Shown here piece by piece: positions 48,191-63,006 of a stretch of 64,000 bases of DNA. The stretch is taken from contig OZ242041.1 in the NCBI GenBank assembly GCA_965205215.1, positions 800,001 through 864,000 on the forward strand, written 5' to 3'. The DNA comes from Nitrosopumilus sp. (lineage in GTDB: Archaea; Thermoproteota; Nitrososphaeria; Nitrososphaerales; Nitrosopumilaceae). Every line of letters starts with the position of its first letter. Position 1 is the first letter of the stretch. The notes under the pieces are model-generated. The model had not been told where the DNA came from. It was given only the letters and a program-made list of their open reading frames with translations, and ran no database searches. A program made the position numbers and the translations under genes.

Positions 48191-48832
48191 TCAAGTTGAA
48201 TTTGCATCTCTCTCGGTAATAGCAGCTTTCTTTTTTTCTGGCAAACTATCAAATATGCCCCGAATTTCTTTCGGGCGTGTATATGCCCAAACAGAGATGT
48301 GGTTTACTATTTTGAATAATATTTCAGCTGTTTTTACATCGTCACGTAAATCCATTTCGAGTGAGTGTGCCGCTTCGCCTCCTATGACTCTAACAGTATC
48401 TAGAGCTTCTTGGATATTCGGATCAAGCCCTTTTTCTTGTACTAAATATTTTATCATTGCATTAAGATCACTCCCTTTTGCTCCAATATCTTTACATATA
48501 TTTTCAACACAAAGTCGTAACAATATACAAGCAGAACGAGGGGAACGGGAGCATACGTCTCTAGCCTCATTATAGTCGTTTTTAATGTCATCTGGCATGT
48601 CTAGGTTTGGAGATGGTGCTGAACTCGTAATGGGATACACCATTCTTTTGTTTATCCAAATCGTCACATCATCACATCTGCTACAACGAGTTATATACGA
48701 ATTAGGATGTGAATTATAAGCACCGCGTCCTGCTGATTTGTGCAGTTCGATCCAATATTGTACAGCATAAGCATTACAATGGGGGCAATGGAAAGCATCT
48801 GAATGTAATGATGGTGGAATATAGGCTTCCAT
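48191..48832 (-). CDS. DUF4145 domain protein with N-terminal Cys pairs
   Basis: CPHC, CSRC; DYNEA..SPRSACILLRLCVE; LDTVRVIGGEAAH; AT-rich. Confidence 0.85.
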   Translation of the reverse strand: MEAYIPPSLHSDAFHCPHCNAYAVQYWIELHKSAGRGAYNSHPNSYITRCSRCDDVTIWINKRMVYPITSSAPSPNLDMPDDIKNDYNEARDVCSRSPRSACILLRLCVENICKDIGAKGSDLNAMIKYLVQEKGLDPNIQEALDTVRVIGGEAAHSLEMDLRDDVKTAEILFKIVNHISVWAYTRPKEIRGIFDSLPEKKKAAITERDANST

Positions 48833-49436: not shown

Positions 49437-50819
49437 TTACAAAAGAGAATCCATGACACCGTTTGTTTGAGAAATCAATTGTTCGACTCTTTCCCTGTTG
49501 GGGCGTTTTCCTTCCAGAATTTTATTTACAGCTTCAAATATGACATATGATGGAATTATACATATTTTTCTTGATTCGGCATATTCTATTTCGTTGGGTT
49601 CATATTTTTTTCTATCGCTTCTGGAAATTGGATATTCCATTTTTCTGAATTGATTCGAGATAAATATTCCCTTTGCTTTAATGGGAGATTCTGCTATGAG
49701 GTAATTTGTAACCCATTTCTCACATTGAGTAATGTCTGCCATAGTAGTTTTGCTAGATCTTCCTTTAACTTCAATAACTCCGAGGTTAAATTCGTTAATC
49801 GATGGTAGTTTAATGATCAGATCTTCTTCATTAGATTGTTTTCCACAGTGGATGTCATCAAAGCCAAGTATTTTAAAAGAATTCATAACAATTTCCTCTA
49901 ATTGCCGTCCCTGGGAAAATAACAGGCCACAGTAACTCAAAAGTTCTTTTTGTTTTCTTACCTTGATCTCAATTTCTTCTTGTATTTCTTCTTTGTTTTT
50001 TTCTAGCAATGCTATTTCTTGATCAAGTTCAGTCAATCCGGGAATTTCCAATTTTGTAATCCATTTAGGCGGTAGTTCATTGTTGTCTTTCTTGACAATC
50101 GATATAATTATATCAATAGCATCTTCATTTGGAATAGCTGTTGGAGCTGGCAATATGGTGATGTCTCCAAGAATTATGCTAGTATTAATAGAGAAAGTTC
50201 CACCTATACATCTAGCCGAATTGTCAGTAATTTCATAATTAGGATCCTTACGAATAGATAAATCAAATCGTGTTTTATCTTGTAAAGAACGAGACTGATG
50301 AATATCTGAAATAGAATAATCGAAATTTTTTACAGTTTTTAGATATTCCACATACATGTGGTTTTTTGTGTGCTTCATTTTTGTAGACTCGCCAGTATAA
50401 CGTGACTGTATATTAATGGGAAGTATTATGTTGGGAAGCATTGTATCTTTCACAATTAAACTTTCATAATGTCTATAAATTACAATAATTTTTCCACCGC
50501 TTAGAATCTTATCCTCCAAATCTGAACAAATTTTCCTAATTTTTTGATCAGTAAACTTGTTATCCATATTTTCTATGTATCTATGTTTTGGGTCCGTTAA
50601 CACAGGTGTTGTACATATTTTCTTGTCACTTAGATCTAAGATTTCGCTTGCTAGTGAAGTAATGTCAATAATAATTATATCTGCATCGGAAATGCTTGGG
50701 ATATATTCTGTCCATAGGAAAGATTTGTCCGCATTAGAAGTTTTTGCACCTAAAACCCAGATCTCACTATCGTGTGTCATTTGATTAGATATTTGAGTCA
50801 TAAATAAAAGTGATTCCAA
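49437..50819 (-). CDS. AT-rich hypothetical protein with coiled coil and C-terminal PD-(D/E)xK nuclease-like domain
   Basis: GRQLEEIV..FKILGF, EDLII, GVIEVKG, ITQCEKW. Confidence 0.7.
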   Translation of the reverse strand: MESLLFMTQISNQMTHDSEIWVLGAKTSNADKSFLWTEYIPSISDADIIIIDITSLASEILDLSDKKICTTPVLTDPKHRYIENMDNKFTDQKIRKICSDLEDKILSGGKIIVIYRHYESLIVKDTMLPNIILPINIQSRYTGESTKMKHTKNHMYVEYLKTVKNFDYSISDIHQSRSLQDKTRFDLSIRKDPNYEITDNSARCIGGTFSINTSIILGDITILPAPTAIPNEDAIDIIISIVKKDNNELPPKWITKLEIPGLTELDQEIALLEKNKEEIQEEIEIKVRKQKELLSYCGLLFSQGRQLEEIVMNSFKILGFDDIHCGKQSNEEDLIIKLPSINEFNLGVIEVKGRSSKTTMADITQCEKWVTNYLIAESPIKAKGIFISNQFRKMEYPISRSDRKKYEPNEIEYAESRKICIIPSYVIFEAVNKILEGKRPNRERVEQLISQTNGVMDSLL

Positions 50820-51279: not shown

Positions 51280-52620
51280 TTAGGAAGACCATATTTTCTG
51301 AAGTCCGCTCAACTCCTTTCTGTTGTAGATGGAGCGATCCAGCGCATCAAGTACATCTTTCTGGGCCTTGTACATGTCTAAAAGCGCCATCATCCGGAGT
51401 ATTGACTTTTTTGTTATCACATGCAGTCTGGAATACACGTCTCCTACTTCCATCACGGATGAGCGGATCTTGATCTGCCTCTCTTCTGATTTATGTACTA
51501 TTCCGCTCCGGAAGTTGTAGGCTCGCCTGATGAACTCCCACGTGTCCACTCTGTCACTGTCGGTGTCGGCGCATATCGCGGCCGTCCTATGGGCCAGCTT
51601 CAGCGTGGACTCGCCAGGGGAGTCCGTGAGTAGGGCCTCCAAGGCTATCACGTAGTCCACTATCTTGCCTGCGTGTGTCCTGTGCATGTGGGCCATACCG
51701 AACCGGTTTATCACATTGTGTAGGAATTCAGACTTTTTTTGGCCCCCGACCTTCTTTGCAATCATGCCATAGAGCGATTCGAATTTCTGGACGTCCGTTT
51801 CGGACATCCGTATCTTCTTGAACGCAACCGGATTCTCATAGTGGGATCTCAGAGCCTCGATCGATCCAACGTCCATGTATTCGGACTCGCTCTCGTACAC
51901 CCGCCCGAACTGTGGATCCCCGTCCTTGAACAGCCGTAACACGTTCAAGGCCAGGATATACCGTGATGTGGCCTCCTGTTGTAGTTGTTTGTTGGGTGGG
52001 CCGGGCTTCCTGCAGACCAGTACGAACCTCAAACCCCTCTGGTACATGGGTATGTCTTCCATTGTCAAGTCTAACCTCACGATCTTGGAATACTCGACGT
52101 CTGTTACCCTGCGAATGCGCAGTTCCGGGGACAGCCTGATCTCAGAAAAGTCCCCACTTACGCTGTAAAGCGGCGTAACATACGTGGTGTGCGTCAGGTT
52201 GCTGCCCAGATGTCCGTAAAACTTTGACAGCGTGGCGCGGAACGCATCATGTGTCTTGTGTCCGCCACACACCGCCAATTGGGCCACGAACATGGCAATC
52301 TGTCTTGTCGCAAAGTCGTCGTCGCTGTCGTAGTGTGGTTCGTTGCCGCGCAGTGTTCGCGAGTCGTTCTTTAGGATGTTTTTGGCTATTTTGAAAGGTG
52401 GCGCGTCCGTCCATCTTATGTCGTGTTCTATGTCGTATCTCATCTTCCGGTAGTCCAACGCGTCCGGCCGCCGGACGATGTCCGTAAGCTGTTCCTTTTT
52501 GAATACGGGCACGTGCTCTAGTACTCTGTACTTGTCGTCATTCCGCATCTCTTCTATGAGATCCGAGCAGAACTGGGACAGTTTTTTCAGGTGCTGGGTC
52601 AGGTACCGGTTCACGCGCAT
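51280..52620 (-). CDS. ApeA-like HEPN domain protein (predicted RNase)
   Basis: VIALEALL...LKLAHRTA...AYNFRSGIVH (Rx4H). Confidence 0.82.
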   Translation of the reverse strand: MRVNRYLTQHLKKLSQFCSDLIEEMRNDDKYRVLEHVPVFKKEQLTDIVRRPDALDYRKMRYDIEHDIRWTDAPPFKIAKNILKNDSRTLRGNEPHYDSDDDFATRQIAMFVAQLAVCGGHKTHDAFRATLSKFYGHLGSNLTHTTYVTPLYSVSGDFSEIRLSPELRIRRVTDVEYSKIVRLDLTMEDIPMYQRGLRFVLVCRKPGPPNKQLQQEATSRYILALNVLRLFKDGDPQFGRVYESESEYMDVGSIEALRSHYENPVAFKKIRMSETDVQKFESLYGMIAKKVGGQKKSEFLHNVINRFGMAHMHRTHAGKIVDYVIALEALLTDSPGESTLKLAHRTAAICADTDSDRVDTWEFIRRAYNFRSGIVHKSEERQIKIRSSVMEVGDVYSRLHVITKKSILRMMALLDMYKAQKDVLDALDRSIYNRKELSGLQKIWSS

Positions 52621-52627
52621 TGTCCCA

Positions 52628-53659
52628 TCAGTCCGGCATGTGTTTTGCCTTTATTCCGAGATCGGACGTGATCCTGTCCGCAAGCGTCTGTCCGTTGGGG
52701 GTGCGTTTGTTGTCAGTTATCACGGCCCTAGGCCCCGCCGATTCTACATACTTGAGCACATCGGTAAACTCGGCGTGCTCGTCGGACGCCATCCAGATGT
52801 CTCTGCCTTCCTGCCGCATGACTGCATTCCCATAACTGCCACTTACCGTGATCCGCGCCACCGTGCCCTTCCTCTCACGCGGCGTCTCACTCATCGACAC
52901 GTTGAACTCTATCCACGGATAGTCCTTGGACATTATCTCCTCTCCATCGTATTCACGTATGTTCACCAAGTCTCTCATCTCATATCCGTGCCTTTTGTAG
53001 ATGTCCGCCACACGTATGTCCGTTCCACCCGTCAAAAAACTCACATTAGGTGGAATCTCGTCGTGCTTTGAAAGTACGTGCATGATGTGTTGTAGTTTGC
53101 CCCGATGCGCATGTATGCAGACCGGCATCTGTGATGTGATGTTTTCCACCACGGCATCAATTAGGCGGCGCTCCATGCTGCCGCTGTCTATGTTTTTGTC
53201 CAAGCTGGGATTTCCATGTGTGGAGTCTATCACGAGGACGTCGCACTCGGGTGGCTTGTCACGAGGGGATATGTCACCGGAATACAGTATATTCAGGCCG
53301 TCATGCGTCGTTAGCAACACCTGGCTTGCTCCGAGCATGTGATCGGACTCCAGAAGCTTGAGATAGTCCATGTGCCCGTTTATCCGTATGCCCTGCGATT
53401 CATTGTAGTCTATCCTGTGGAACTGTGTTCTACGGTTGTACGTGTCCTCCGTAATCGCCTCCAGAAGGTCACCGGTGATCTTTGAGGTGAACACCTGATA
53501 GTGGTGCATACATGTCTCAAAACTGTTCCCGATATGATCGCTGTGTACATGCGTGAAAGCCGCCGCATAAAACCCCGGCATAAATCCATCGCAAACCACC
53601 GAGCGTCCTAGGCGGATCGCTCCGTCCTCCGTGATGGCCGCCTGTTCGAAGAGATTCAC
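52628..53659 (-). CDS. Metallo-beta-lactamase-fold (beta-CASP-type) nuclease
   Basis: THVHSDH, DHMLGA, YSGD, IDSTHG, SDEHAEF. Confidence 0.85.
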   Translation of the reverse strand: MNLFEQAAITEDGAIRLGRSVVCDGFMPGFYAAAFTHVHSDHIGNSFETCMHHYQVFTSKITGDLLEAITEDTYNRRTQFHRIDYNESQGIRINGHMDYLKLLESDHMLGASQVLLTTHDGLNILYSGDISPRDKPPECDVLVIDSTHGNPSLDKNIDSGSMERRLIDAVVENITSQMPVCIHAHRGKLQHIMHVLSKHDEIPPNVSFLTGGTDIRVADIYKRHGYEMRDLVNIREYDGEEIMSKDYPWIEFNVSMSETPRERKGTVARITVSGSYGNAVMRQEGRDIWMASDEHAEFTDVLKYVESAGPRAVITDNKRTPNGQTLADRITSDLGIKAKHMPD

Positions 53660-53660
53660 G

Positions 53661-54416
53661 TTAGTCGTCTTTCATCATCTCCGAACCAATCATGTGGCCG
53701 AGTGTCCTCTGCATCGGTATGTCGTGGGATTTCGAATATTCTGATATAAAATTGGAGCCGTGTTTTGCAAGAGCCAGTCTTATGCTGTCCGAAAACACCT
53801 TGGCACTCTTGAACGAGCCTTCAGGAAACACGCAGCTCAGTATTTTTGACGCGAATTCGTGAATGTCCACACCGGACTTGTGTGCCTTCTGTTTCATGGC
53901 CTGTATGATGTCCGGGTCTAGCCCGCTTAGGAATATGTAGTGGGTTATAACGACCGGGCGTGTGACGTTGAGCACCTCTGTCAGGCACTCGTTGATGGGT
54001 TTGTCCGGATTGCCCCTCTTCAGGCTCAATATGCCCTTGATCTCTTCCTTGGTGACGGGGCGGGACAGGTCCTCCACTGTTCCGGCCATCATTCGCATGT
54101 CATCTTGACTGTCCAATGAGGCTATTCTGGACGCGACGCTGAATACGATGCCTCCGGTCTCGCGCTTTGATCCGCCCCACACCACCATGCCTTGTATCTC
54201 TGGCGGCAGCCGTAACAGGCTCTTGAATTCATTTATTACATCCTGTTTGATTGGAAGGCGCCTGAGCAGTTCGTTCTGGTCTCCTGCCAGATCATCCAGC
54301 ATTATCTTTATTTCTCTTGCCACATCCACTGGACTGAGCGGCCTGTTGGCACCCTGTACCTTGATGCTGGTGAGTAGTTTGGCCAGCCTGAACGGGTTGT
54401 CAAGTATGTACATCAC
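53661..54416 (-). CDS. ParB-like HTH/central-domain protein lacking the N-terminal NTP-binding domain
   Basis: RPLSPVDVAREIK...LLRLPPEIQGMV pattern parallels the adjacent ParB (ARLPQEIREDV). Confidence 0.55.
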   Translation of the reverse strand: MMYILDNPFRLAKLLTSIKVQGANRPLSPVDVAREIKIMLDDLAGDQNELLRRLPIKQDVINEFKSLLRLPPEIQGMVVWGGSKRETGGIVFSVASRIASLDSQDDMRMMAGTVEDLSRPVTKEEIKGILSLKRGNPDKPINECLTEVLNVTRPVVITHYIFLSGLDPDIIQAMKQKAHKSGVDIHEFASKILSCVFPEGSFKSAKVFSDSIRLALAKHGSNFISEYSKSHDIPMQRTLGHMIGSEMMKDD

Positions 54417-55237
54417 ACATCTGCCGTGTCCAACCCGATGTCTACCAGTTCTACTACAGCTTCCTCGTCCTTTTCTATGTCCTGCCGTTTCTTGTATCGG
54501 TCGATCCGTTCACCTTGGTCATCCGTGAAATGGAGTTGCATGATGTTGACGCTGGTTCTCTGCCTGGCTTTTTCTGCGGCTTGTTGTGGGGTCGAGTCCG
54601 GCTCCCTCTCCTTTATCTCCACGAACTTATCCCGGCCCTGCGGGGAGAGTTTCTTCATCTCCAATGCGGTTTCACGCAGCATGCCGGTGTCGACGGCCGT
54701 CTCGTCGTCGCCCAGTGCCTTGAGGGCCTTGAGCGCGTGCCCCAAGCGGTAGTTTTTGTTGCGCACGTCCTCTCGTATTTCCTGTGGTAACCTTGCCGCA
54801 TTGACGTATTTTCTTATCGTATTGGGGTGGAGTCCGAGTTCCTCTGCCACGTCACTGGTTGAATTGTACTTATCCATGAAATACTCTACTGCATCCACCA
54901 GATCTGCATTCTTCATGTCCTTTCTGGCCACGTTCTCAATAATTGAGAGCATTTTGGCGTTGGATTCGTTCATATCCTGTCCCACCACGTACGCCTTGAT
55001 TGTTGGGAGTTTCAGATGCACATGAGCCCTGTACCTCCTCTGTCCGATCAGCAATTCGTATTGGTCATTATCAGGCACTTGCTTGACCACCACCGGACTG
55101 ATCAGTCCGTGTTTTCGTATACTGAGAACCAAGTCGTCATCCGGCTCCACCTTGGTATCTCGTTGCCTAGCCTGACTGGTACTCATTACGATCTTGTCGA
55201 GCGGAATGTCTTGGGATGTGGACGGTATTGTTGCCAT
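54413..55237 (-). CDS. ParB/RepB/Spo0J family protein
   Basis: SIRKHGLISPVVV, LIGQRRYRA, ENVARKDM, HTH VAEELGLHPNTIRKY; TTTTAAAC box 29 nt before ATG 55237 (ORF open from 55276). Confidence 0.9.
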   Translation of the reverse strand: MATIPSTSQDIPLDKIVMSTSQARQRDTKVEPDDDLVLSIRKHGLISPVVVKQVPDNDQYELLIGQRRYRAHVHLKLPTIKAYVVGQDMNESNAKMLSIIENVARKDMKNADLVDAVEYFMDKYNSTSDVAEELGLHPNTIRKYVNAARLPQEIREDVRNKNYRLGHALKALKALGDDETAVDTGMLRETALEMKKLSPQGRDKFVEIKEREPDSTPQQAAEKARQRTSVNIMQLHFTDDQGERIDRYKKRQDIEKDEEAVVELVDIGLDTADV

Positions 55238-55363
55238 CAATCCTGTGTTTGAATCCATGTTTAAAACTCTGTCCATCTCTTCGCTGGGTGTAGGGTCATG
55301 CAGGCGGCAGAAATCCCAGACATGAAGTCACGTCCGTCTCACTGGATGACGGGTGCCAGTCTG

Positions 55364-56542
55364 TCATGCAGTCGAGCCTATTCTGCCCAGATCGCTTACT
55401 GCTTCCGAGATCGCATCTATGAGATACGCGACCTCCTCGTGGGTGTTGAACCTCCCAAGTCCGATTCGTATGGACGAGTGTGCCTCCTCCACACCCATGC
55501 CCAGTGCCAGTAGCACGTGAGATGGCTCGACTGTCTGGGTGGTGCACGCGGATCCCGCGGATATTGCGACGTGTTCGGATATAGAATTGATGATAGCCTT
55601 GCCGTCTATTCCCGGAAACGTGAGGCTTATGTTGTGCGGAAGTCTCTTGTCCGTGTCGCCGTTGTGCATCGCCCCTGATGTCCTTGAGAGTGTGTCGATT
55701 ATTTCAGTCGACCATTCGCGAAACCGTTTGTTTTCCTTTGGCATCTCTTTTTGCGCTATCTCGGCCGCCTTTCCAAACCCAACTATGGCAGGCACGTTCA
55801 GGGTTCCGGGACGCATGCTGCGTTCCTGACCGCCCCCATGCATTGAAGGCAGAACTCGCACCCTCGGCTTTATGGCCCTAATGTAGAGCGCCCCGACTCC
55901 CTTTGGTCCGCACATCTTGTGCGATGAGAACGACATCAGGTCGACGTTCATGTCTTGGACGTTGACCGGTATGTGTCCCACTGCCTGGGCCGCGTCCGTA
56001 TGGAACAGTACGTTGTGCTCGTGAGCCATCTTTCCAATCGATCTGACATCTGCGATAGTTCCGATCTCATTGTTTGCCGTCATTATGGATATCAGCACGG
56101 TCTTGTTGGTAATGGCATCTTTGATGTCCGATGTAGAGACATGTCCATACCGGTCGACTGGTAGGTACGTAACCTGCTTCCCCATGGATTCAAGATGCTT
56201 GGTAGTGTCAAGAACCGCCTTGTGCTCTGTCGCGCACGTAATCATATGATCCCCCTTGTCCGCATACGCTTCCATGACACCCATCAATGCCAGATTGTCG
56301 GATTCCGTGGCGCCACTTGTAAATACGATCTCGTGACTCCACTTGGCGTCTATCAGTCTAGCAAGTCGCTCCCTTGCTGTCTCCACCGCCACAGACGCGT
56401 CATGCCCGTACGGGTGGTCCAAGCTAGATGCATTACCGAACTTTTCTGCAAAGTATGGCATCATCTCATCAAGTACGCGCCGATCAAGCGGCGTCGTGGC
56501 ATGATAATCCATGTATATTGGACGGGCGGTGTCAGCCAGCAA
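55364..56542 (-). CDS. dndA: Cysteine desulfurase DndA (IscS family)
   Basis: YMDYHATTP, FTSGATES, HTDAAQ, SSHK, SAGSACT; overlaps the dndE stop. Confidence 0.9.
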   Translation of the reverse strand: MLADTARPIYMDYHATTPLDRRVLDEMMPYFAEKFGNASSLDHPYGHDASVAVETARERLARLIDAKWSHEIVFTSGATESDNLALMGVMEAYADKGDHMITCATEHKAVLDTTKHLESMGKQVTYLPVDRYGHVSTSDIKDAITNKTVLISIMTANNEIGTIADVRSIGKMAHEHNVLFHTDAAQAVGHIPVNVQDMNVDLMSFSSHKMCGPKGVGALYIRAIKPRVRVLPSMHGGGQERSMRPGTLNVPAIVGFGKAAEIAQKEMPKENKRFREWSTEIIDTLSRTSGAMHNGDTDKRLPHNISLTFPGIDGKAIINSISEHVAISAGSACTTQTVEPSHVLLALGMGVEEAHSSIRIGLGRFNTHEEVAYLIDAISEAVSDLGRIGSTA

Positions 56543-56915
56543 CCTTCCGCTCCTCGTCTATTACCTTCTCAACGTCTGACAGGTCGTGTATACGGGCAAA
56601 CAGCGCTATCGCGCCCCTGTTAAAGTGGGCTCGCGTCATACTGTTAAGGTACGTCTTGGGGTCTAGTCCGTCGCGGTTAAGCCTCTGTATCATCAGGGCC
56701 ATGAACACATCCTCGTATTCGCCAAACAGCACGGAGGGGTGCATCTCCGATCCTTTTTCGTCGAACTCGTCGGGATTTGGAACAGACAGGTTGTTCAGGG
56801 ACATGCATATGGCAAACCTGCCGGTGATGTTGGGGGTCAGGCCCGTCCGTGACTTTAGCTGCGCAAGCAGGTTCTGCGAGCGGTAGCTCATGTACAACCT
56901 GCTAAACCGCAGCAA
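56532..56915 (-). CDS. dndE: DNA sulfur modification protein DndE
   Basis: LKSRTGLTPNITGRFAICMSL, LFGEY, AHFNRG; lies between dndD and the desulfurase; start TTG 56915 or ATG 56891. Confidence 0.9.
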   Translation of the reverse strand: MLRFSRLYMSYRSQNLLAQLKSRTGLTPNITGRFAICMSLNNLSVPNPDEFDEKGSEMHPSVLFGEYEDVFMALMIQRLNRDGLDPKTYLNSMTRAHFNRGAIALFARIHDLSDVEKVIDEERKVAG

Positions 56916-58947
56916 TCTTGTTATCCTCCCTCGCATCAAGATCCCAAAAGTATCCGTTGCACGGCGACGTGGAGCCGGTGTCCTCGTTAAACACAAGCAG
57001 GTATGACTTTGTCATGTGGACTGACATTGCATCGTACTCGGACTCCTCGATCTCCGTGTCTGTGGAAAACACCAGAGTCTGGTGTGAGGCAACAGGCAGG
57101 AACCTTCGGACAATGCTCGTCCTATGCGCGTCGTCCAGCCTCGCAAGCGGTGTATCGATCATGAATGGTAGCGGCCTGCCAGATGTCTTTGCAAGTGCCC
57201 ACAAAACGGACATTGCAAACATCTGCTTTTCGCCTTCGGAGAGCATGTCCTTTGGCTTTGTCTTGCCGTCCCTGTCGTATATGGTGATCTCAAATGACTT
57301 TGGGTCGATTCTTATCCCGTGGATCAATCTTTTTTTGTGCAACAGGATTCCAGTCGCGTCAAGCAGGTACTGTTCAAGAAGTCGTATTTTTTTGACCCTC
57401 AGCCTGTCTATGAACTCCTCTAACACCTTTTGCACCTCGTGCGTGAGGTGTATCTGCTCCTTTGTCTTCTTGCCCTTGTATGTCCTTGATACTAGGTCGC
57501 GCATCTTAGTGTCGACATGCTGCAGCAGGGCCCTGTTGCTAGATATCTTCTCCCCTATGTGGTTCATCTCCTCCTGCAGCGCCCCCCGCTGCGAGTTTAA
57601 TTCCGCCACTTTCGAGACAAGCGGCCCGATCTCGTCGTCTGCAGGTGCACTCACGATGGCCGATTCCAACGTACTGATCTCCCTGTCGTATTTGACAAGC
57701 GAGGCTGTTTCCTTTCTGAGCGCGGGGAGCAGCGTATTGTTGGCCCTGCTGATAACACCTTTGATGGACGCAGCCTGGGATTCTGAGAATCCGAACACCG
57801 GAGTCCCTTCTGTCTTCTGGATCTTCTCCTTTTTGATGAACCTAGTTATGGAGGATGTTATGATGCGTTTTTGACTGGCGCTTAGTGCGGCGTTTTTGTA
57901 TGTGTCTTTGAGCATCTTCGACATGGCCCTGATCTTTTCATCAAGCATCGTGGCGCCCGCCCTGTCCTGAAATATTGCAGAATCCGAATCTAACTGCTTC
58001 AACAGTTCATCAAGCTGCCTTGGCATCAGTGCAAGCGGCAGCGCGTCGGAACACATATCGGATATCCGTTTGCGCGCCACCTCGTATCCAGATCGTGAGT
58101 CTCCGAGCCGCGTCTTTGCATCGTCCCTGCCGCTTGCAAAGGCCCCGCCTATCTTTGATATGTCATATTCTGCGCTCTCTATCTCGTTTGACAGGGCGTC
58201 CATCTCGGTCTGCTTTTGTGCGAGTCGTTCGCGCAAGCGCTCCATAGTCTGGGCAGTTCCGTCTCGCTCCATCTCACATTCCGCAATTTCTTTTTGTAGT
58301 TGCTTGTCGTCACCTGCCAGATTTCTTGTCAGATTAACCTGCAGATCCGCATGCAGCTGCTCCACAATCTCGATTCCCAAGAGCGACTTGAAGGAGTTAC
58401 GGATGACCGCGTCCTCTGATCCCTCCTTTGCCATCCTTACCACCTTTTCGCCGTCAAAGAAAAACAACCTGAGTATGCCTTTTGGAATCAGATCCGATAC
58501 GAATGATTGCCAGTAGGACGCCTCCACGGCGTCAAGACGCTCAAAGTGAGCGCGCGGATCCGTGCGTTTTTTGACATCCAGATGTTCTTCTGCGCGACCG
58601 TACGATGATTTCTGCCACGAACGTTCCACTCGGTATTCGACCTCTTTTGAGTTGTGATAGAACTTGAACTGGACGGCCACCGAGGCGCTGTCTGCCATGA
58701 CGGAGCTCTTCTGATACCTGTGGATCTTTTTTGCCAAGAACTCCTCGTACGCCTTTTTTGTGATGCGCCTGTCAGCCGCCGACATCCCGTACAGGCACAG
58801 TGGAACGGCCTCAAAGAGCGTGGTTTTACCCGCGCCATTAGCACCGCCGATAAGTATGATGGGTTTGTCCGGTGCGGGGACAAGGTCAAACTCGTTTTTC
58901 CCTCCGTACACCCCGTAGTCTGTCAGTACGACCTTTGTGATTATCAC
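56902..58947 (-). CDS. dndD: DNA sulfur modification protein DndD (SMC-like ATPase)
   Basis: GANGAGKTT, LFFFDGEK, long coiled coil, LSEGEKQ, FMIDTPLARLD..HR, STDTEI. Confidence 0.95.
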   Translation of the reverse strand: MIITKVVLTDYGVYGGKNEFDLVPAPDKPIILIGGANGAGKTTLFEAVPLCLYGMSAADRRITKKAYEEFLAKKIHRYQKSSVMADSASVAVQFKFYHNSKEVEYRVERSWQKSSYGRAEEHLDVKKRTDPRAHFERLDAVEASYWQSFVSDLIPKGILRLFFFDGEKVVRMAKEGSEDAVIRNSFKSLLGIEIVEQLHADLQVNLTRNLAGDDKQLQKEIAECEMERDGTAQTMERLRERLAQKQTEMDALSNEIESAEYDISKIGGAFASGRDDAKTRLGDSRSGYEVARKRISDMCSDALPLALMPRQLDELLKQLDSDSAIFQDRAGATMLDEKIRAMSKMLKDTYKNAALSASQKRIITSSITRFIKKEKIQKTEGTPVFGFSESQAASIKGVISRANNTLLPALRKETASLVKYDREISTLESAIVSAPADDEIGPLVSKVAELNSQRGALQEEMNHIGEKISSNRALLQHVDTKMRDLVSRTYKGKKTKEQIHLTHEVQKVLEEFIDRLRVKKIRLLEQYLLDATGILLHKKRLIHGIRIDPKSFEITIYDRDGKTKPKDMLSEGEKQMFAMSVLWALAKTSGRPLPFMIDTPLARLDDAHRTSIVRRFLPVASHQTLVFSTDTEIEESEYDAMSVHMTKSYLLVFNEDTGSTSPCNGYFWDLDAREDNKIAAV

Positions 58948-60473
58948 GCCCCGTTGCCACCCCCTACGGCAAACTTCTTCATCTCGCTTTTCTGCTGCTC
59001 CAGCTCGTGTACTATGGTGCCCAAGTCATCGCGCCACTCCTCCGAGAGCACCTTGGTGATCTTGGGGTATATCCTAGAATGTTGGGCCATTCCCTGCGAC
59101 TCATGCTCTGTGTTTAGCAGTTTTGATACGAGTAGCGCGGGTACACCACGTTTACTGCATATCCCCTCCAACAGATCTTGTTCTACTACACCAAACCCGC
59201 CCAAGTCCTCTTGGGGCGGGATCAACCTTTCGTCCAGCACTCTTTCGTATATCTGATATGCGGTGTTCTTCCAGTCACCACGCTCCATACGCCATATGCG
59301 CTGTATTTCATGTACCTCTTCGTCCTGTATAAGGCACAGGTGAGGGTCGGGGCCAGTCTGCCGCACCTTTTTTTGCGCCACCAGTATCTTTTCCAAAAAC
59401 TCTCGGCAAAACTCCAGCGTGTATGGTCCGGGAACCAGCTTTGCATACGGGTCAGTGATCTCGTCACCACTGCCGGCCATCTCTAATTCCATCTTTGACT
59501 CCTGTATCTTCTCATCAAAAGCTTTTTTGCGTGAGTCGTCTATCAGCTTCATCTGCCCTGTGCGCCTCTTGAGGGACCTGACCTTTTTCCTTACTGCGGG
59601 ATTCTGGGTAGCCTTTAGTTCGTCTCTCAACTCAAGCAGAGGCTCCATCCAGTCCTCCCCGCTCTCAACCGTATTGCGGAGTGAAACGTCATCCTCTACC
59701 ACCGTGCACGTCCAGCATCCGAACCTGCTGTTGCCGCAGGAGGGAGTGGTGGTATCAACCACCAGGGGGCATTCTGATGCATTTGCATTCTGGTACACGG
59801 CCAAGAGGTCGCGATTGTTTGCGCCCCACGGGTTCTCCTTTTGCAACAGATAACTCCACACGTCCTTTGCGGTAAAGTCGCGGAGCGGTGTGTACACGTA
59901 TGTCTGTGCAAACTTGGAGTGGCGCGACAAGAGGCTGCCCTCTATCTCATATAGGTTCATCAGCTGTTGTCTTGAGCCGCTCTCGTCCTTTCGGGTTCCA
60001 AGCACTACGACCGCCTCGCCGTACTCGGACACCTTTTCTTGGATGAACCTGTCGGCGTTCCGTATCTTTAGGCGCTCCGTACACCATCGAAACAGGTTGC
60101 TTGGGGCAGGAAACCCTTTGCCAAGCAGGCACACCCAGAACGTGTCTTCTATAACAGGCCTGACTAGATTGGTAGATACCGGCAGATGCGTTTTTTTTGA
60201 TGCCTTTTCCATCATGTCCAGCGTGGTGATGATCTGCTCTACTATCTTGGGTGATTCCACCAACGTATCTGATGATATGATGTAGATGCGCTTTGCAAGC
60301 TTGTTAGGCGGCAGCTCTGACAGTGCGCTCCATATCAGCTGCACCATACAGGTGGAGTCCTTGCCCCCACTGAACCCGAGTATCCAGGGACGGTTGTCCC
60401 CCAGGTATACTGAGCGTATCTCATCATGTATGTCCTTGAGGGTTCGCTTTGAAAAAACTGACTTTGCCACCAT
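58944..60473 (-). CDS. dndC: DNA phosphorothioation sulfurtransferase DndC
   Basis: PWILGFSGGKDS, SDTLVE, FRWCTERLKI, ECPLVVD, SCGNSRFGCWTCTVV. Confidence 0.96.
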   Translation of the reverse strand: MVAKSVFSKRTLKDIHDEIRSVYLGDNRPWILGFSGGKDSTCMVQLIWSALSELPPNKLAKRIYIISSDTLVESPKIVEQIITTLDMMEKASKKTHLPVSTNLVRPVIEDTFWVCLLGKGFPAPSNLFRWCTERLKIRNADRFIQEKVSEYGEAVVVLGTRKDESGSRQQLMNLYEIEGSLLSRHSKFAQTYVYTPLRDFTAKDVWSYLLQKENPWGANNRDLLAVYQNANASECPLVVDTTTPSCGNSRFGCWTCTVVEDDVSLRNTVESGEDWMEPLLELRDELKATQNPAVRKKVRSLKRRTGQMKLIDDSRKKAFDEKIQESKMELEMAGSGDEITDPYAKLVPGPYTLEFCREFLEKILVAQKKVRQTGPDPHLCLIQDEEVHEIQRIWRMERGDWKNTAYQIYERVLDERLIPPQEDLGGFGVVEQDLLEGICSKRGVPALLVSKLLNTEHESQGMAQHSRIYPKITKVLSEEWRDDLGTIVHELEQQKSEMKKFAVGGGNGA

Positions 60474-61555
60474 TAGATTCCTCTCTCCACCCTATCCGGT
60501 ACGCCCAGCCTAAACAGAATCTCGTTTGCGGCGCGCTTTATGCCCAGTCGGTTCTTTAGCATCTTGCCGTCCATTACGACCTTGTCTTGCCAGATGGGAC
60601 TGCTGCGGGACCAGTCTATGTTCTGTAGCCCCCTTATCTTTTGCCTCCAGTCCCTGCGCCTAGTGAGTATCTGGCCTACTATGCCCAACGCGTTCAGTAT
60701 GTTTGTGTGGGCGTGCACGTATTGTTTTCTCATGTCATGCGGGGCCATCCTCTTGTCTATCAGCAGGTTCCACTGCGGGATGTTTCTGGATACGTGGATC
60801 CAGTATTCGGCTGCTAACTTCTGCTTTTCTGCAGCAATTGACTTGGTGCTCGTCTTTATATCCAAGAGGCGGCGGGTGGCCTCGCCGACGCCGTTGAGCG
60901 TGAATACCTTATTTGAGCGGTTTGATATGTTGGTTTTTTCCATTTCGGTGCGCCCTGCAAATATATCGATGTCGTTGGCCAGCGTCACCACAAACCTGGC
61001 AAACGTGTCACGGTGGTCGTACAGTAGAGCAAGCGACTTTGTGGGCTTTACTGCGTTCTGATTCAGGTCCGCAAACATTTGCTGACTGTGCTCCAGTCCG
61101 CGATCTTCGAATATCACGACGGGTATTCTCTCCAGCCCCACTTCTTTGTTCTGTTCGTATGCGCTCCTTATCGCCGCGCATCGGTGCTGGCCGTCGTTTA
61201 CCAGTATGGTAGCATTTGAGGGTATTGTTATCGTACCCACCCTGCTCTCGGAGTTTCCCGACGGAATCGGGTCGAATCTCATGAGTTTGTCCACCGAAAC
61301 CGTAATTGCAGAAAACACGTAGTTGGTTGGGTTCTCCAGTATGTACGACGATATTTTGGATATGCGCGACTCCCTGACCTTGCGCTGGGCCCTCATCTCG
61401 GGAGGCACTCTGGAATCCTTGTCAAATGCAAAGTGCTTTACAACCGTGGCAAAGTCGCACATGGCAACGTAGAACTCTCTTCCCGCTTGTATTCCCCTTG
61501 TCGCATGAAACGTCATGGCACCCTCTGCATCACCAGCGTATGCCAGTTTACCCAT
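60473..61555 (-). CDS. dndB: DNA sulfur modification protein DndB (DGQHR domain)
   Basis: RGIQAGREFY, RAQR, YVFSAIT, VNDGQHR, QQMFADLN, LYDHRD; ATTATAAC box 29 nt before ATG 61555. Confidence 0.93.
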   Translation of the reverse strand: MGKLAYAGDAEGAMTFHATRGIQAGREFYVAMCDFATVVKHFAFDKDSRVPPEMRAQRKVRESRISKISSYILENPTNYVFSAITVSVDKLMRFDPIPSGNSESRVGTITIPSNATILVNDGQHRCAAIRSAYEQNKEVGLERIPVVIFEDRGLEHSQQMFADLNQNAVKPTKSLALLYDHRDTFARFVVTLANDIDIFAGRTEMEKTNISNRSNKVFTLNGVGEATRRLLDIKTSTKSIAAEKQKLAAEYWIHVSRNIPQWNLLIDKRMAPHDMRKQYVHAHTNILNALGIVGQILTRRRDWRQKIRGLQNIDWSRSSPIWQDKVVMDGKMLKNRLGIKRAANEILFRLGVPDRVERGI

Positions 61556-61570
61556 GCCACATGTATTTGG

Positions 61571-61588
61571 AAGCATGTTATAATGCTT
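61571..61588. promoter_or_regulatory. Inverted repeat AAGCAT-N6-ATGCTT overlapping the dndB TATA box
   Basis: Perfect 6-bp arms read directly; function inferred. Confidence 0.5.
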
Positions 61589-61658
61589 TACACACATCTT
61601 TTTGTACATCTCATACAACCGGAAACGATGGCAGATCTAAGTATCGGGGCTGTTCCGG

Positions 61659-61790: not shown

Positions 61791-61989
61791 GCGCGTCATA
61801 CAGCCGCCCGCAATAAAAGAGGCGTAATCGTTTGAGCGCCTTGATACAATATTGATCCGGAAGCATTCAATTCAAAATCAAATTCTGTTGTGAATTCGGA
61901 ATGTGCCTATCGTTCTAGATCAAGTCACGAATTCGTAACAGAACCTACCAATGCAAAATACTTTTATTTCGTACATCGTCAGCAGATGC

Positions 61990-63006
61990 ATGACTGTCAC
62001 CGAGGAGACGATAGATCGGGATGACGAAATCAAAAATGACTATGTGCTCCTTCGTAACTATAACGAAAACATCCTGCCAATGAGAGAAATACTACTCAAG
62101 ATCGCCATGAATTCCATAAGCCAAATAGAAGAAGACAAATTTCCACTAGGAAATTTTTCGGATAAAGAAAAAATCAAAATAAAGTCAATGTTTCAGATGG
62201 ATATAATTTCGGGCATTATGATGTACGTCGAAGATCTCGCTATTTTGGCGGAATCATTTAGGAGGAAAATTTCGTACTACAAGCTACTGGATCGTTCCGA
62301 TGAAAATGAGGGCGATGCAGGAGATATAATCAGAGATTTTTTTGAATGCCTGAATTCCTTCTCCGATGTGGAATTTCACAGGATTTTGGGATATGCAGAT
62401 CTAAGCCAACTAGAACTGAAGGAAGAAGAAAGACGTCTTGTAGAAAAAGTAATGTTGACAAATATTGCAGAGATAAAGAGAATTCTCATTGAGATAAAAA
62501 AGTTTAGAAGTAGCCACCATCCTGCATTTAGGAGGTTTAAACATGCGGGAGCTCCGTTGATACTAGGCGCGCTAGGGAACGTACCTGAAAATTCTCCACT
62601 TTCCAAATTTGATTCTTACACTCAGGTGTCAAGGGGGAAAAATCCGCTTAAAGACATGATTACAATTCCGTTATCAAAGAATGTTTTGGATGGCTATAAT
62701 ATTATCATTGATGGCATCCGGATTTTTCTGCAAGACTTGGTCAAAAATCACATGGCGTGTACTGAACGAAATCTAGTCGGTATACTCCCAGACCAATCCT
62801 ATTCTCTGGAATATACTCCTGAGGAAAAAAAACTGTATGAAAAAATTATACGTGAGTTTTATGACAAACATCCTCCTCGCACGGATGATCTAAGGAGATT
62901 ACACTTCAAACTCACAATCGAAAAGGAAGACATCATGTGGTATCTTGACCTGCCAAACTTTTTAAGAGAATGCAAAGAACGAAAAGAATACGCTAATAAT
63001 TCATGA
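61990..63006 (+). CDS. AT-rich hypothetical protein, possibly HEPN-like
   Basis: Long helical-looking ORF with YVEDLA and FRRFKH; TTTTATTT box ~29 nt before ATG 61990. Confidence 0.65.
   Translation: MTVTEETIDRDDEIKNDYVLLRNYNENILPMREILLKIAMNSISQIEEDKFPLGNFSDKEKIKIKSMFQMDIISGIMMYVEDLAILAESFRRKISYYKLLDRSDENEGDAGDIIRDFFECLNSFSDVEFHRILGYADLSQLELKEEERRLVEKVMLTNIAEIKRILIEIKKFRSSHHPAFRRFKHAGAPLILGALGNVPENSPLSKFDSYTQVSRGKNPLKDMITIPLSKNVLDGYNIIIDGIRIFLQDLVKNHMACTERNLVGILPDQSYSLEYTPEEKKLYEKIIREFYDKHPPRTDDLRRLHFKLTIEKEDIMWYLDLPNFLRECKERKEYANNS

Follow-up and report, generated by a model that had tools for sequence, protein, structure and literature searches.

We analysed a stretch of 64,000 nucleotides (nt) from Nitrosopumilus sp. 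(assembly GCA_965205215.1, contig OZ242041.1, positions 800,001 to 864,000; referred to throughout as the window) and found that the DNA phosphorothioation operon dndBCDEA is followed there by four tightly packed genes encoding a ParB-family protein, a ParB-like protein, a beta-CASP nuclease and a HEPN-domain protein. With moderate confidence, we propose that these four genes form the restriction-type effector half, and dndBCDEA the writer half, of a defence system that distinguishes self from non-self by DNA modification. The link of the cassette to DNA modification is well supported by the gene neighbourhoods of its homologues, and the cassette is probably a new type of effector for phosphorothioate (PT) systems.

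A four-gene cassette follows dndBCDEA

The open reading frame (ORF) listing places nine consecutive genes, all on the minus strand, within 51280-61618 of the window. They follow in the order dndB, dndC, dndD, dndE, dndA, ParB, ParB-like, nuclease and HEPN:

60473..61618, minus strand: dndB, ParB-superfamily regulator of the Dnd system (PADLOC DndB 1.1e-123; Pfam DndB 4.5e-113)
58944..60473, minus strand: dndC, PAPS-reductase-fold ATP pyrophosphatase (PADLOC DndC 4e-176; Pfam PAPS_reduct 4.3e-11)
56902..58947, minus strand: dndD, SMC/ABC-type ATPase (PADLOC DndD 3.5e-174; Pfam AAA_23 and SMC_N)
56532..56996 (longest ORF), minus strand: dndE (PADLOC DndE 1.6e-41; Pfam DndE 4.2e-21)
55364..56542, minus strand: dndA, cysteine desulfurase (PADLOC DndA 2.6e-159; Pfam Aminotran_5 1.4e-85)
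55259..55266, minus strand: TATA-like TTTTAAAC, about 25 nt upstream of ATG 55237, candidate cassette promoter
54413..55276 (likely true start 55237), minus strand: ParB (Pfam ParB_N 3.9e-16 and HTH_ParB 1.1e-4; TIGR00180 1.8e-26)
53661..54416, minus strand: ParB-like adaptor, GTG start, with a ParB DNA-binding domain (residues 1-139) and a tandem ribbon-helix-helix (residues 158-251) in the AlphaFold2 model
52628..53659, minus strand: beta-CASP metallo-beta-lactamase-fold nuclease of 343 amino acids (aa), GTG start, assigned from PDB profile matches and conserved motifs
51280..52620, minus strand: HEPN-domain protein of 446 aa, with a C-terminal HEPN domain at about 292-418 and the Rx4H motif at R371 and H376

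By sequence, the first five genes are unambiguously a dndBCDEA operon in which all five Dnd proteins are present. The dndABCDE genes are already known in Thaumarchaeota, as parts of two reports state (PMC6790972, PMC7848895). Measured between longest ORFs, the dnd genes overlap by 1 nt (B/C), 4 nt (C/D), up to 95 nt (D/E) and 11 nt (E/A). The true start of dndE is probably internal because the Pfam match begins at residue 33, and the probable start of dndB is ATG 61555, which a TATA-like CATTATAA precedes by about 27 nt. In the cassette, ParB and ParB-like overlap by 4 nt, and gaps of 1 nt and 7 nt separate ParB-like from the nuclease and the nuclease from HEPN. The stop codon of dndA and the start of ParB are 87 nt (ATG 55276) or 126 nt (ATG 55237) apart. 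These measurements bear out a preliminary description of this DNA, which had placed nine co-oriented minus-strand genes here, with the dnd genes overlapping and four packed genes beginning some 90-130 nt after dndA.

The cassette accompanies phosphorothioation writers

We surveyed 401 genomes of the family to which the window belongs, all of them kin, whose named members are Nitrosopumilaceae. A profile match at E <= 1e-32 defined the module-type nuclease, the background of housekeeping beta-CASP proteins lying at about 1e-16. This nuclease was found at 27 places in 24 of the 401 genomes. Flanks of up to 10 kb were examined at 25 of these places (the window and two sets of 7 and 17 loci), the other two lying on contigs of 2.3 and 2.5 kb. 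Genes of the dnd operon occurred within 10 kb at 21 of the 25 places, usually as the immediate neighbour and mostly 30 nt to 3 kb away. At a further locus (L059) the cassette is flanked by SspA, SspB and SspC (SspC 2.9e-296), and at another (L054) SspC lies about 11 kb upstream, so that a PT writer, dnd or ssp, accompanies the cassette at 23 of the 25 places. Of the remaining loci, L010 has a DndB remnant alone beside the cassette and a stop-containing dndC elsewhere, and at L063 just a decayed piece of the nuclease gene is left and no writer is present.

The same association was seen at the level of genomes. With a threshold of E <= 1e-40, DndC was detected in 63 of the 401 genomes, namely in 21 of the 24 that carry the module and in 42 of the other 377. 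The three module genomes lacking DndC are G176, where the contig breaks off within dndA, G097, an assembly that is 76%-complete and has a 2.3-kb contig, and G370, the fragment case. An initial contig scan of one genome per species, with peptide patterns that are clade-specific, had yielded 9 loci in which the four genes stood beside dndBCDEA wherever the contig was long enough, co-oriented or convergent; 7 of the 9 were metagenome-assembled genomes (MAGs) of Nitrosopumilus, Nitrosopumilaceae or Nitrosotalea. A haloarchaeal frame for the locus was dropped, as the named relatives are Nitrosopumilaceae MAGs. Close relatives of the cassette were found neither on 72,556 plasmids, where one weak match was to a different exonuclease, nor in viral contigs.

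In the preliminary description the four genes had been taken for an alternative PT effector module, which a homologue search and a synteny count with dnd should bear on. The condition named there as refuting this, homologous modules lying mostly apart from dnd, did not hold in the family sample. The tie to phosphorothioation stood, with dnd genes near most modules and ssp genes near two more, as did the absence of PADLOC matches to the four proteins; what had to be revised is the extent of the conserved unit, which is the triad of ParB, ParB-like and nuclease genes.

The nuclease carries intact beta-CASP metal-binding motifs

A profile built from 31 homologues of the nuclease matched the archaeal aCPSF1 PH1404 (5.1e-23), FttA (1e-18), Cas14 (5e-14) and SNM1A (4.1e-9) in the PDB, with further matches to CPSF73, INTS11, Apollo and Artemis. 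The longest and best sequence matches were to the RNA-acting members, and SNM1A, Apollo and Artemis matched the N-terminal metallo-beta-lactamase half alone. Used as a single protein, the nuclease gave as its best NCBIfam match TIGR04122, a ligase-associated DNA damage response exonuclease (6.2e-10, far below the cut-off), and matched the NCBIfam Cas14 model at 1.5e-8. Across 27 sequences, the most distant of them 25% identical, residues H37, H39, H42, H107 and H295 never varied (27 of 27), and D24, D41 and D129 were nearly invariant. The expected HxHxDH motif is thus present, with H37, H39 and H42 invariant and D41 nearly so, and the protein, having metallo-beta-lactamase motifs 1-4 and the C-terminal metal-ligand histidine, is by its motifs a member of the beta-CASP family. 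The public call for this gene (P0001) is a protein of 293 aa, 100% identical over 85% coverage, whose start falls after HxHxDH. This deposited start is probably wrong because the 343-aa frame with a GTG start matches all homologues.

One nucleotide-binding ParB and one DNA-binding partner

The ParB protein combines an NTP-binding N-domain of the ParB/Srx type, containing the GQRRYRA and EN motifs, with a following helix-turn-helix (HTH). In the aligned homologues G78-Q79-R80-R81 was invariant (22 of 22) and E114 nearly so, so that the protein retains the motifs with which the ParB/Srx fold binds nucleotides. On the strength of its ParB_N match and of the GxxRxxA, EN and HTH elements in that order, we assign the protein to the ParB/Srx NTP-binding superfamily. 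Its C-terminus appears to be ribbon-helix-helix (RHH)-like from the sequence pattern.

Homologues of ParB begin almost invariably at M14, which ATG 55237 encodes. The TATA-like TTTTAAAC at about 25 nt before this ATG thus falls within the longest ParB ORF and yet upstream of the likely start. Given this spacing from a homologue-supported start, an archaeal promoter of its own and a leaderless mRNA are plausible for the effector cassette. A separate TATA box at 55259-55266, and with it a possible promoter of the module, had been suggested before; the suggestion remains plausible and agrees with the finding that in other genomes the module and dnd do not keep one relative orientation.

The second protein was recognisable by sequence from just a sub-threshold Pfam HTH_ParB match, and its assignment comes from an AlphaFold2 model built from 25 homologues (pLDDT 92.3). 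In VIA-align comparisons, residues 1-139 of the model resembled ParB DNA-binding domains (6s6h, Z 9.5, root-mean-square deviation 3.1 over 115 aligned residues; Spo0J, Z 9.4; KorB, Z 7.9), and residues 158-251 a pseudo-dimeric tandem RHH (single-chain Arc, Z 8.1; AvtR, Z 7.3), with a weak resemblance of the latter to DndE (Z 5.3 and 4.4). A Foldseek search of the PDB returned Spo0J/Noc/ParB at a probability of about 1.0 and an E-value of just about 0.04. The protein lacks the NTP-binding N-domain. The earlier notion of a ParB clamp pair is therefore the wrong description: one ParB with an NTP-binding domain is present, and its partner consists of a ParB DNA-binding domain and a tandem RHH only. 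Among 1.84 billion representatives, the ParB-like profile found 945, 469 and 87 clusters (at 50% identity) at E <= 1e-3, 1e-10 and 1e-30, respectively.

We infer that the cassette proteins form a physical complex; a structure prediction for ParB, ParB-like and nuclease together scored 0.00 against a mark of 0.32, which says nothing either way on binding. With metal-binding, GQRR and Rx4H motifs all intact, the proteins have the predicted catalytic and NTP-binding parts of a DNA-directed effector.

The HEPN protein is a frequent accessory

The 446-aa protein had no family match in Pfam, NCBIfam or PADLOC. In an AlphaFold2 model from 45 homologues (pLDDT 91.9), HEPN domains filled the top 11 of 11 VIA-align rows for residues 292-418, with Z-scores of 9.0 to 6.9, which is moderate for a helical domain. 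These included 4nqf (Z 9.0, root-mean-square deviation 3.2, 115 aligned residues), the sacsin HEPN domain (Z 8.1), Csm6 (Z 7.9) and a HEPN-MNT toxin (Z 7.3). A Foldseek search of the model against the PDB gave nothing at E <= 0.001, and the N-terminal 290 residues, comprising helical and alpha/beta domains, had just weak TetR-C-like helical matches (Z about 5). R371 and H376 of the RSGIVH motif were invariant in 45 of 45 sequences. The HEPN fold of the model and this invariant R and H support the HEPN assignment. The protein had been described as an ApeA-like HEPN protein; the HEPN part of that description stood, and the likeness to ApeA did not, since PADLOC, which includes an ApeA model, gave no match at E <= 0.01.

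The HEPN gene follows the nuclease gene in about 14 of 24 complete copies in the family sample and is absent from about 10, while the nuclease gene is always kept. Two HEPN genes appear disrupted. In L009 (11041-13635) the gene is split into pieces of 241 and 201 aa by a 312-aa ORF, probably an insertion, and in L052 it likewise lies in two pieces; decay of accessory genes seems common. An ORF at L050:7852-9318 was considered as a divergent HEPN gene and rejected, since its alignment was poor and it has the appearance of a spurious ORF of high GC.

A constant triad is re-paired with different writers

Across all copies the core is constant and its order fixed, running from ParB through ParB-like to the nuclease. 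Variants have exchanged HEPN for another accessory: in nine of the 24 complete copies a SNF2 helicase (about 587 aa; SNF2-rel_dom 1.3e-36) that resembles PADLOC BrxH, DrmD, DpdE and ZorD, together with a conserved 265-aa protein without a family match, is encoded upstream of ParB. A sub-clade adjacent to ssp has a MzaB-like protein and a helicase nearby.

Relative to dnd, the cassette may be co-oriented, convergent or divergent, and the two do not share one history. Two genomes (G383 and G390; loci L057 and L061) have a DndC 93-94% identical to that of the window, combined with a cassette of the SNF2 type in opposite orientation whose nuclease is only ~29% identical. Conversely, L011 joins a close cassette (57%) to a distant dnd operon (DndC 52%, DndD 35%). 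As a crude measure based on single-reference identities, the identities of DndC and nuclease to the proteins of the window gave a Spearman coefficient of -0.30 (n=20). The repeated re-pairing of writer and cassette points to selection on the pairing, and suggests that the two are coupled via the DNA mark rather than by co-evolving protein contacts.

Some loci are of interest in their own right. Between dndA and the convergent cassette, L057 (8310-9428) and L061 (8164-9546) encode a DUF7669 protein (about 3e-13) where the window has the HEPN/ParB genes. In one genome (G299:C1:1652000-1685199, loci L048/L049), two complete dnd and cassette systems, some 13 kb from each other, belong to different sub-types, of which one has the SNF2 pair and the other lacks it, and in L062 the cassette lies between two dnd clusters.

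A metagenome search with the window-clade profile, which finds mainly the window's own clade, returned two contigs with dndBCDEA and all four genes (L064 and L066). The ParB-like gene directly preceded the nuclease gene in 11 of the 14 contigs with at least 400 nt upstream. On a further contig (L080) the triad is accompanied by a SNF2 gene, a GmrSD-like gene with DUF262 and DUF1524, and a DndC-like gene (1.6e-112).

Outside the family the triad was found beside other writers. In a phylum-level sample of 401 genomes, the ParB-like signature occurred in one genome of another family (G523), where the triad is followed by a convergent gene, next to the nuclease gene, for a fusion of ParB_N with an N6_N4 DNA methyltransferase. 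The signature was also present in 2 of 301 genomes of the class of a MAG titled Alphaproteobacteria (L014). Genome G1020 has the triad with two N6_N4 methylases 1-3 kb downstream, and G014 a decayed ParB and ParB-like pair, the ParB-like gene with an internal TAA, beside SspA and a truncated SspC. As triads stand beside methyltransferases outside the family, the cassette has the behaviour of a restriction-type module whose partner may be one or another DNA writer, which in the window's archaeal family is overwhelmingly Dnd. The proposal that the module is dedicated to PT was thus not borne out: it also occurs beside SspABC and, outside the family, beside N6/N4 methyltransferases, so nothing implies a ParB devoted to reading PT.

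Known PT partners and related systems

PADLOC had no match for any of the four cassette proteins, and the architecture of DUF262 (GmrSD_N) with DUF1524 was not found among them with Pfam or PADLOC. In the whole genome the PbeC model matched DndD alone (5.1e-168), apart from one weak match (5.2e-5), and no second DndD-like gene was found. The PbeA model, which gave matches in all 14 controls, found generic pieces of helicase and PLD type in this genome, located at separate sites over 340 kb from the locus. The DndH model (TIGR03237) had no match in this genome; its control was silent in all 14 genomes, so the absence of DndFGH is not shown. The earlier statement that no known PT partner is recognisable at the locus hence holds for the PADLOC comparison of the four genes and for a second PbeC-like gene, and is left without a working control for DndH.

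One known counterpart, DndABCDE-DndFGH, likewise consists of a PT writer operon and an adjacent multi-gene effector, and has the effector with the writer far oftener than the reverse. DndFGH comprises a P-loop kinase, winged HTH proteins and a very large protein joining a restriction endonuclease (REase) to HerA/FtsK, as described in part of PMC10853773, and has no homology to the four cassette proteins.

DndCDEA-PbeABCD of haloarchaea resembles the window's arrangement in being an archaeal four-gene cassette after dnd that pairs with methyltransferases when dnd is absent. Passages of Xiong 2019 (PMC6459918) give a weak co-evolution of Pbe with DndCD (rho 0.107), comparable to the lack of a positive correlation between DndC and nuclease for the present cassette type. 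According to the same passages, PbeA combines PLD and helicase domains, PbeC is DndD-like and viral DNA is not degraded (PMC6459918); the window's cassette, in contrast, lacks PbeA- and PbeC-type proteins and carries intact metallo-nuclease motifs.

SspABCD-SspE/GmrSD also has a PT-linked effector that joins a ParB-superfamily (DUF262) NTPase domain to a nuclease, and some triads lie beside sspABC. SspE, however, is a single protein with DUF262 and DUF1524 (HNH), whereas ParB_N, the HTH/RHH adaptor and the beta-CASP nuclease of the window are encoded by separate genes. The CTP-gated clamps ParB, KorB and Noc share with the cassette a ParB_N domain with GxxRxxA and ENxxR-type motifs followed by an HTH, and the ParB-like protein has the ParB DNA-binding fold. 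Unlike these clamps, the cassette lacks ParA and, having an RHH-like C-terminus, a canonical C-terminal dimerisation domain, and is operonic with a nuclease. Cas14 of type VII CRISPR systems is likewise a beta-CASP metallo-nuclease serving as a defence effector; it has about 610 aa and is guided by CRISPR to RNA, whereas the nuclease of the window is a minimal protein of 343 aa linked to ParB and DNA-modification genes.

Dnd modules recruit diverse nucleases, among them HKD, HNH, REase, URI, HEPN and PIN domains, with HEPN as a backup suicide effector, according to passages of Rakesh, Aravind & Krishnan 2024 (PMC10853773). The main text of that survey, in the parts covered here, contains neither MBL nor lactamase nor CASP and uses ParB for DndB alone, which is there the known regulator and a ParB-superfamily member; its supplements may hold such neighbourhoods. 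Nor is the arrangement described in the relevant passages of a BREX survey, a ParB-CTPase survey (2025, PMC12704722) and the Menshen paper. In the literature covered we found no description of a ParB plus beta-CASP cassette with dnd, and the supplementary tables of PMC10853773 and PMC12839542 could hold some; the cassette is apparently undescribed.

Setting of the locus

The locus lies in a low-GC island (39-53% GC versus about 60-65% in the genome) that is also a defence island, with PD-T7-4 inside the window and an MmeI-type enzyme just past its edge. The PD-T7-4 match is a 213-aa DUF4145 protein at 48191-48832 on the minus strand (PADLOC 6.3e-71; Pfam DUF4145 2.5e-15); another genome has a 52% identical copy close to its dnd and cassette genes (L048:16207-16815). 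A 460-aa ORF at 49437-50819 on the minus strand, with PD-T7-4 on one side and the HEPN gene on the other, is situated where the GC content of the island is lowest (about 39-42%). It matched nothing in Pfam, NCBIfam or PADLOC and is possibly a further defence gene. Divergent from dndB, a 351-aa ORF at 61951-63006 on the plus strand (about 43% GC) had no family match in the same three databases.

The island extends to the right past the edge of the window (L085, G000:C1:863000-880000). This part holds a 460-aa protein of no assigned family, the start of which (63464) is still inside the window, and an MmeI-type IIG restriction-modification enzyme that is complete, at 892 aa and with each of the five MmeI domains. 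A DDE transposase and a pair of IS66-family transposase ORFs identical to each other are also encoded there. About 32 kb beyond the dnd operon lies a GmrSD_N (DUF262) gene (G000:C1:894141-894758, minus strand, 558-aa frame, 2.4e-33). GmrSD_N is the superfamily of the PT-sensing SspE, and the similar gene in the metagenome contig L080 stands between the DndC-like gene and the SNF2 gene and triad.

Discussion

We favour a model in which writer and effector meet at the DNA mark. The Dnd proteins would put phosphorothioate marks on host DNA, and the ParB and ParB-like proteins would bind DNA and spread or slide along it, gated by nucleotide binding and, where a SNF2 motor is present, driven by it. 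On DNA without the host mark, the ParB proteins would recruit or license the beta-CASP nuclease, and the HEPN RNase would act as a second-line, growth-arresting effector. A broader version of this idea, which we put forward only tentatively, is that the triad is a widespread, writer-agnostic restriction cassette in which a nucleotide-gated ParB clamp scans for a mark (PT from Dnd or Ssp, or N6/N4 methylation) and lets the nuclease act where the mark is absent. Given the 469 ParB-like clusters at E <= 1e-10, this class of triads would reach well beyond ammonia-oxidising archaea.

Several points weigh against an effector half matched to the Dnd writer. Judging by profile matches, the closest solved relatives of the nuclease (aCPSF1, FttA, CPSF73 and Cas14) cleave RNA, and DNA cleavage is for this reason not established; it is the genomic context that favours DNA as the predicted target. 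The cassette is probably a separate transcription unit with its own promoter. Three metagenome contigs (L068, L073 and L075) hold a related nuclease without ParB partners despite upstream room. G523, a 99%-complete genome, has the triad and neither DndC nor any PAPS-reductase domain, so PT is not obligatory for the cassette family. Defence genes cluster anyway, and because the 401 genomes are kin and dnd and cassette may travel jointly as island cargo, the association counts overstate the independence of the observations. Finally, the GmrSD_N gene ~32 kb away could be another PT-related effector, and the silent DndH control counts on the same side.

Some of these points would also be expected if the cassette were an independent, self-sufficient defence system, for instance of the abortive-infection or nuclease type, that merely shares islands with dnd, ssp and methyltransferase genes. 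Its probable own transcription unit and variable orientation, its free reassortment relative to dnd lineages, the G523 triad without any PAPS-reductase gene and the unrelated defence genes in the island of the window (PD-T7-4 and the MmeI-type enzyme) all agree with such a system. We nevertheless consider it unlikely. A PT writer is found beside the cassette at 23 of 25 places, usually as immediate neighbour, and DndC is present in 21 of 24 module genomes as opposed to 42 of 377 others. Other island genes do not track dnd, a PD-T7-4 homologue having turned up at a single one (L048) of the 24 further loci examined in the family, and even the triads without PT abut DNA methyltransferases.

Alternatively, the cassette might serve modification itself, either by controlling the placement or amount of PT or by processing or repairing damage at PT sites, a role that we regard as quite improbable. 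It would suit the best NCBIfam match of the nuclease, the damage response exonuclease TIGR04122 (far below its cut-off, as noted), the weakly DndE-like tandem RHH of the ParB-like protein and the membership of the regulator DndB in the ParB superfamily, as stated in part of PMC10853773. Against this stand the 42 of 63 DndC-bearing genomes that have no cassette, which is therefore not needed for modification; the accessories, which are typical defence effectors and motors (a HEPN RNase and a SNF2 protein like BrxH, DrmD and DpdE); and the pairing of the triad with methyltransferases, where PT damage is irrelevant. That the genes are instead a maintenance module of a mobile island, with ParB for partition or regulation and HEPN and/or nuclease as an addiction-type toxin, is very improbable: the island is low in GC, has transposases just past the window and encodes a member of a family of classic partition and plasmid-silencing factors (TIGR00180 match), yet no mapped locus has an adjacent ParA-type ATPase, no close relative was found on the 72,556 plasmids or in viral contigs, and many copies do without HEPN, whereas the nuclease is never missing.

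PT systems are often without a recognised restriction partner, and DndFGH, PbeABCD and SspE were not found at the locus of the window. If our reading of the four genes as an effector half is true, the cassette would explain the partner of about a third of the dnd operons of the family (21 of 63) and would represent a fifth, mechanistically different type of PT-linked effector. Proteins of the ParB-CTPase fold would also gain a function in immunity, next to a beta-CASP nuclease. The pairing of one cassette with Dnd, Ssp and methyltransferases makes it a good model for the re-use of an effector with different epigenetic writers, and the finding would bear on the virus defence of ammonia-oxidising archaea, which are globally abundant and of whose defence biology little has been tested.

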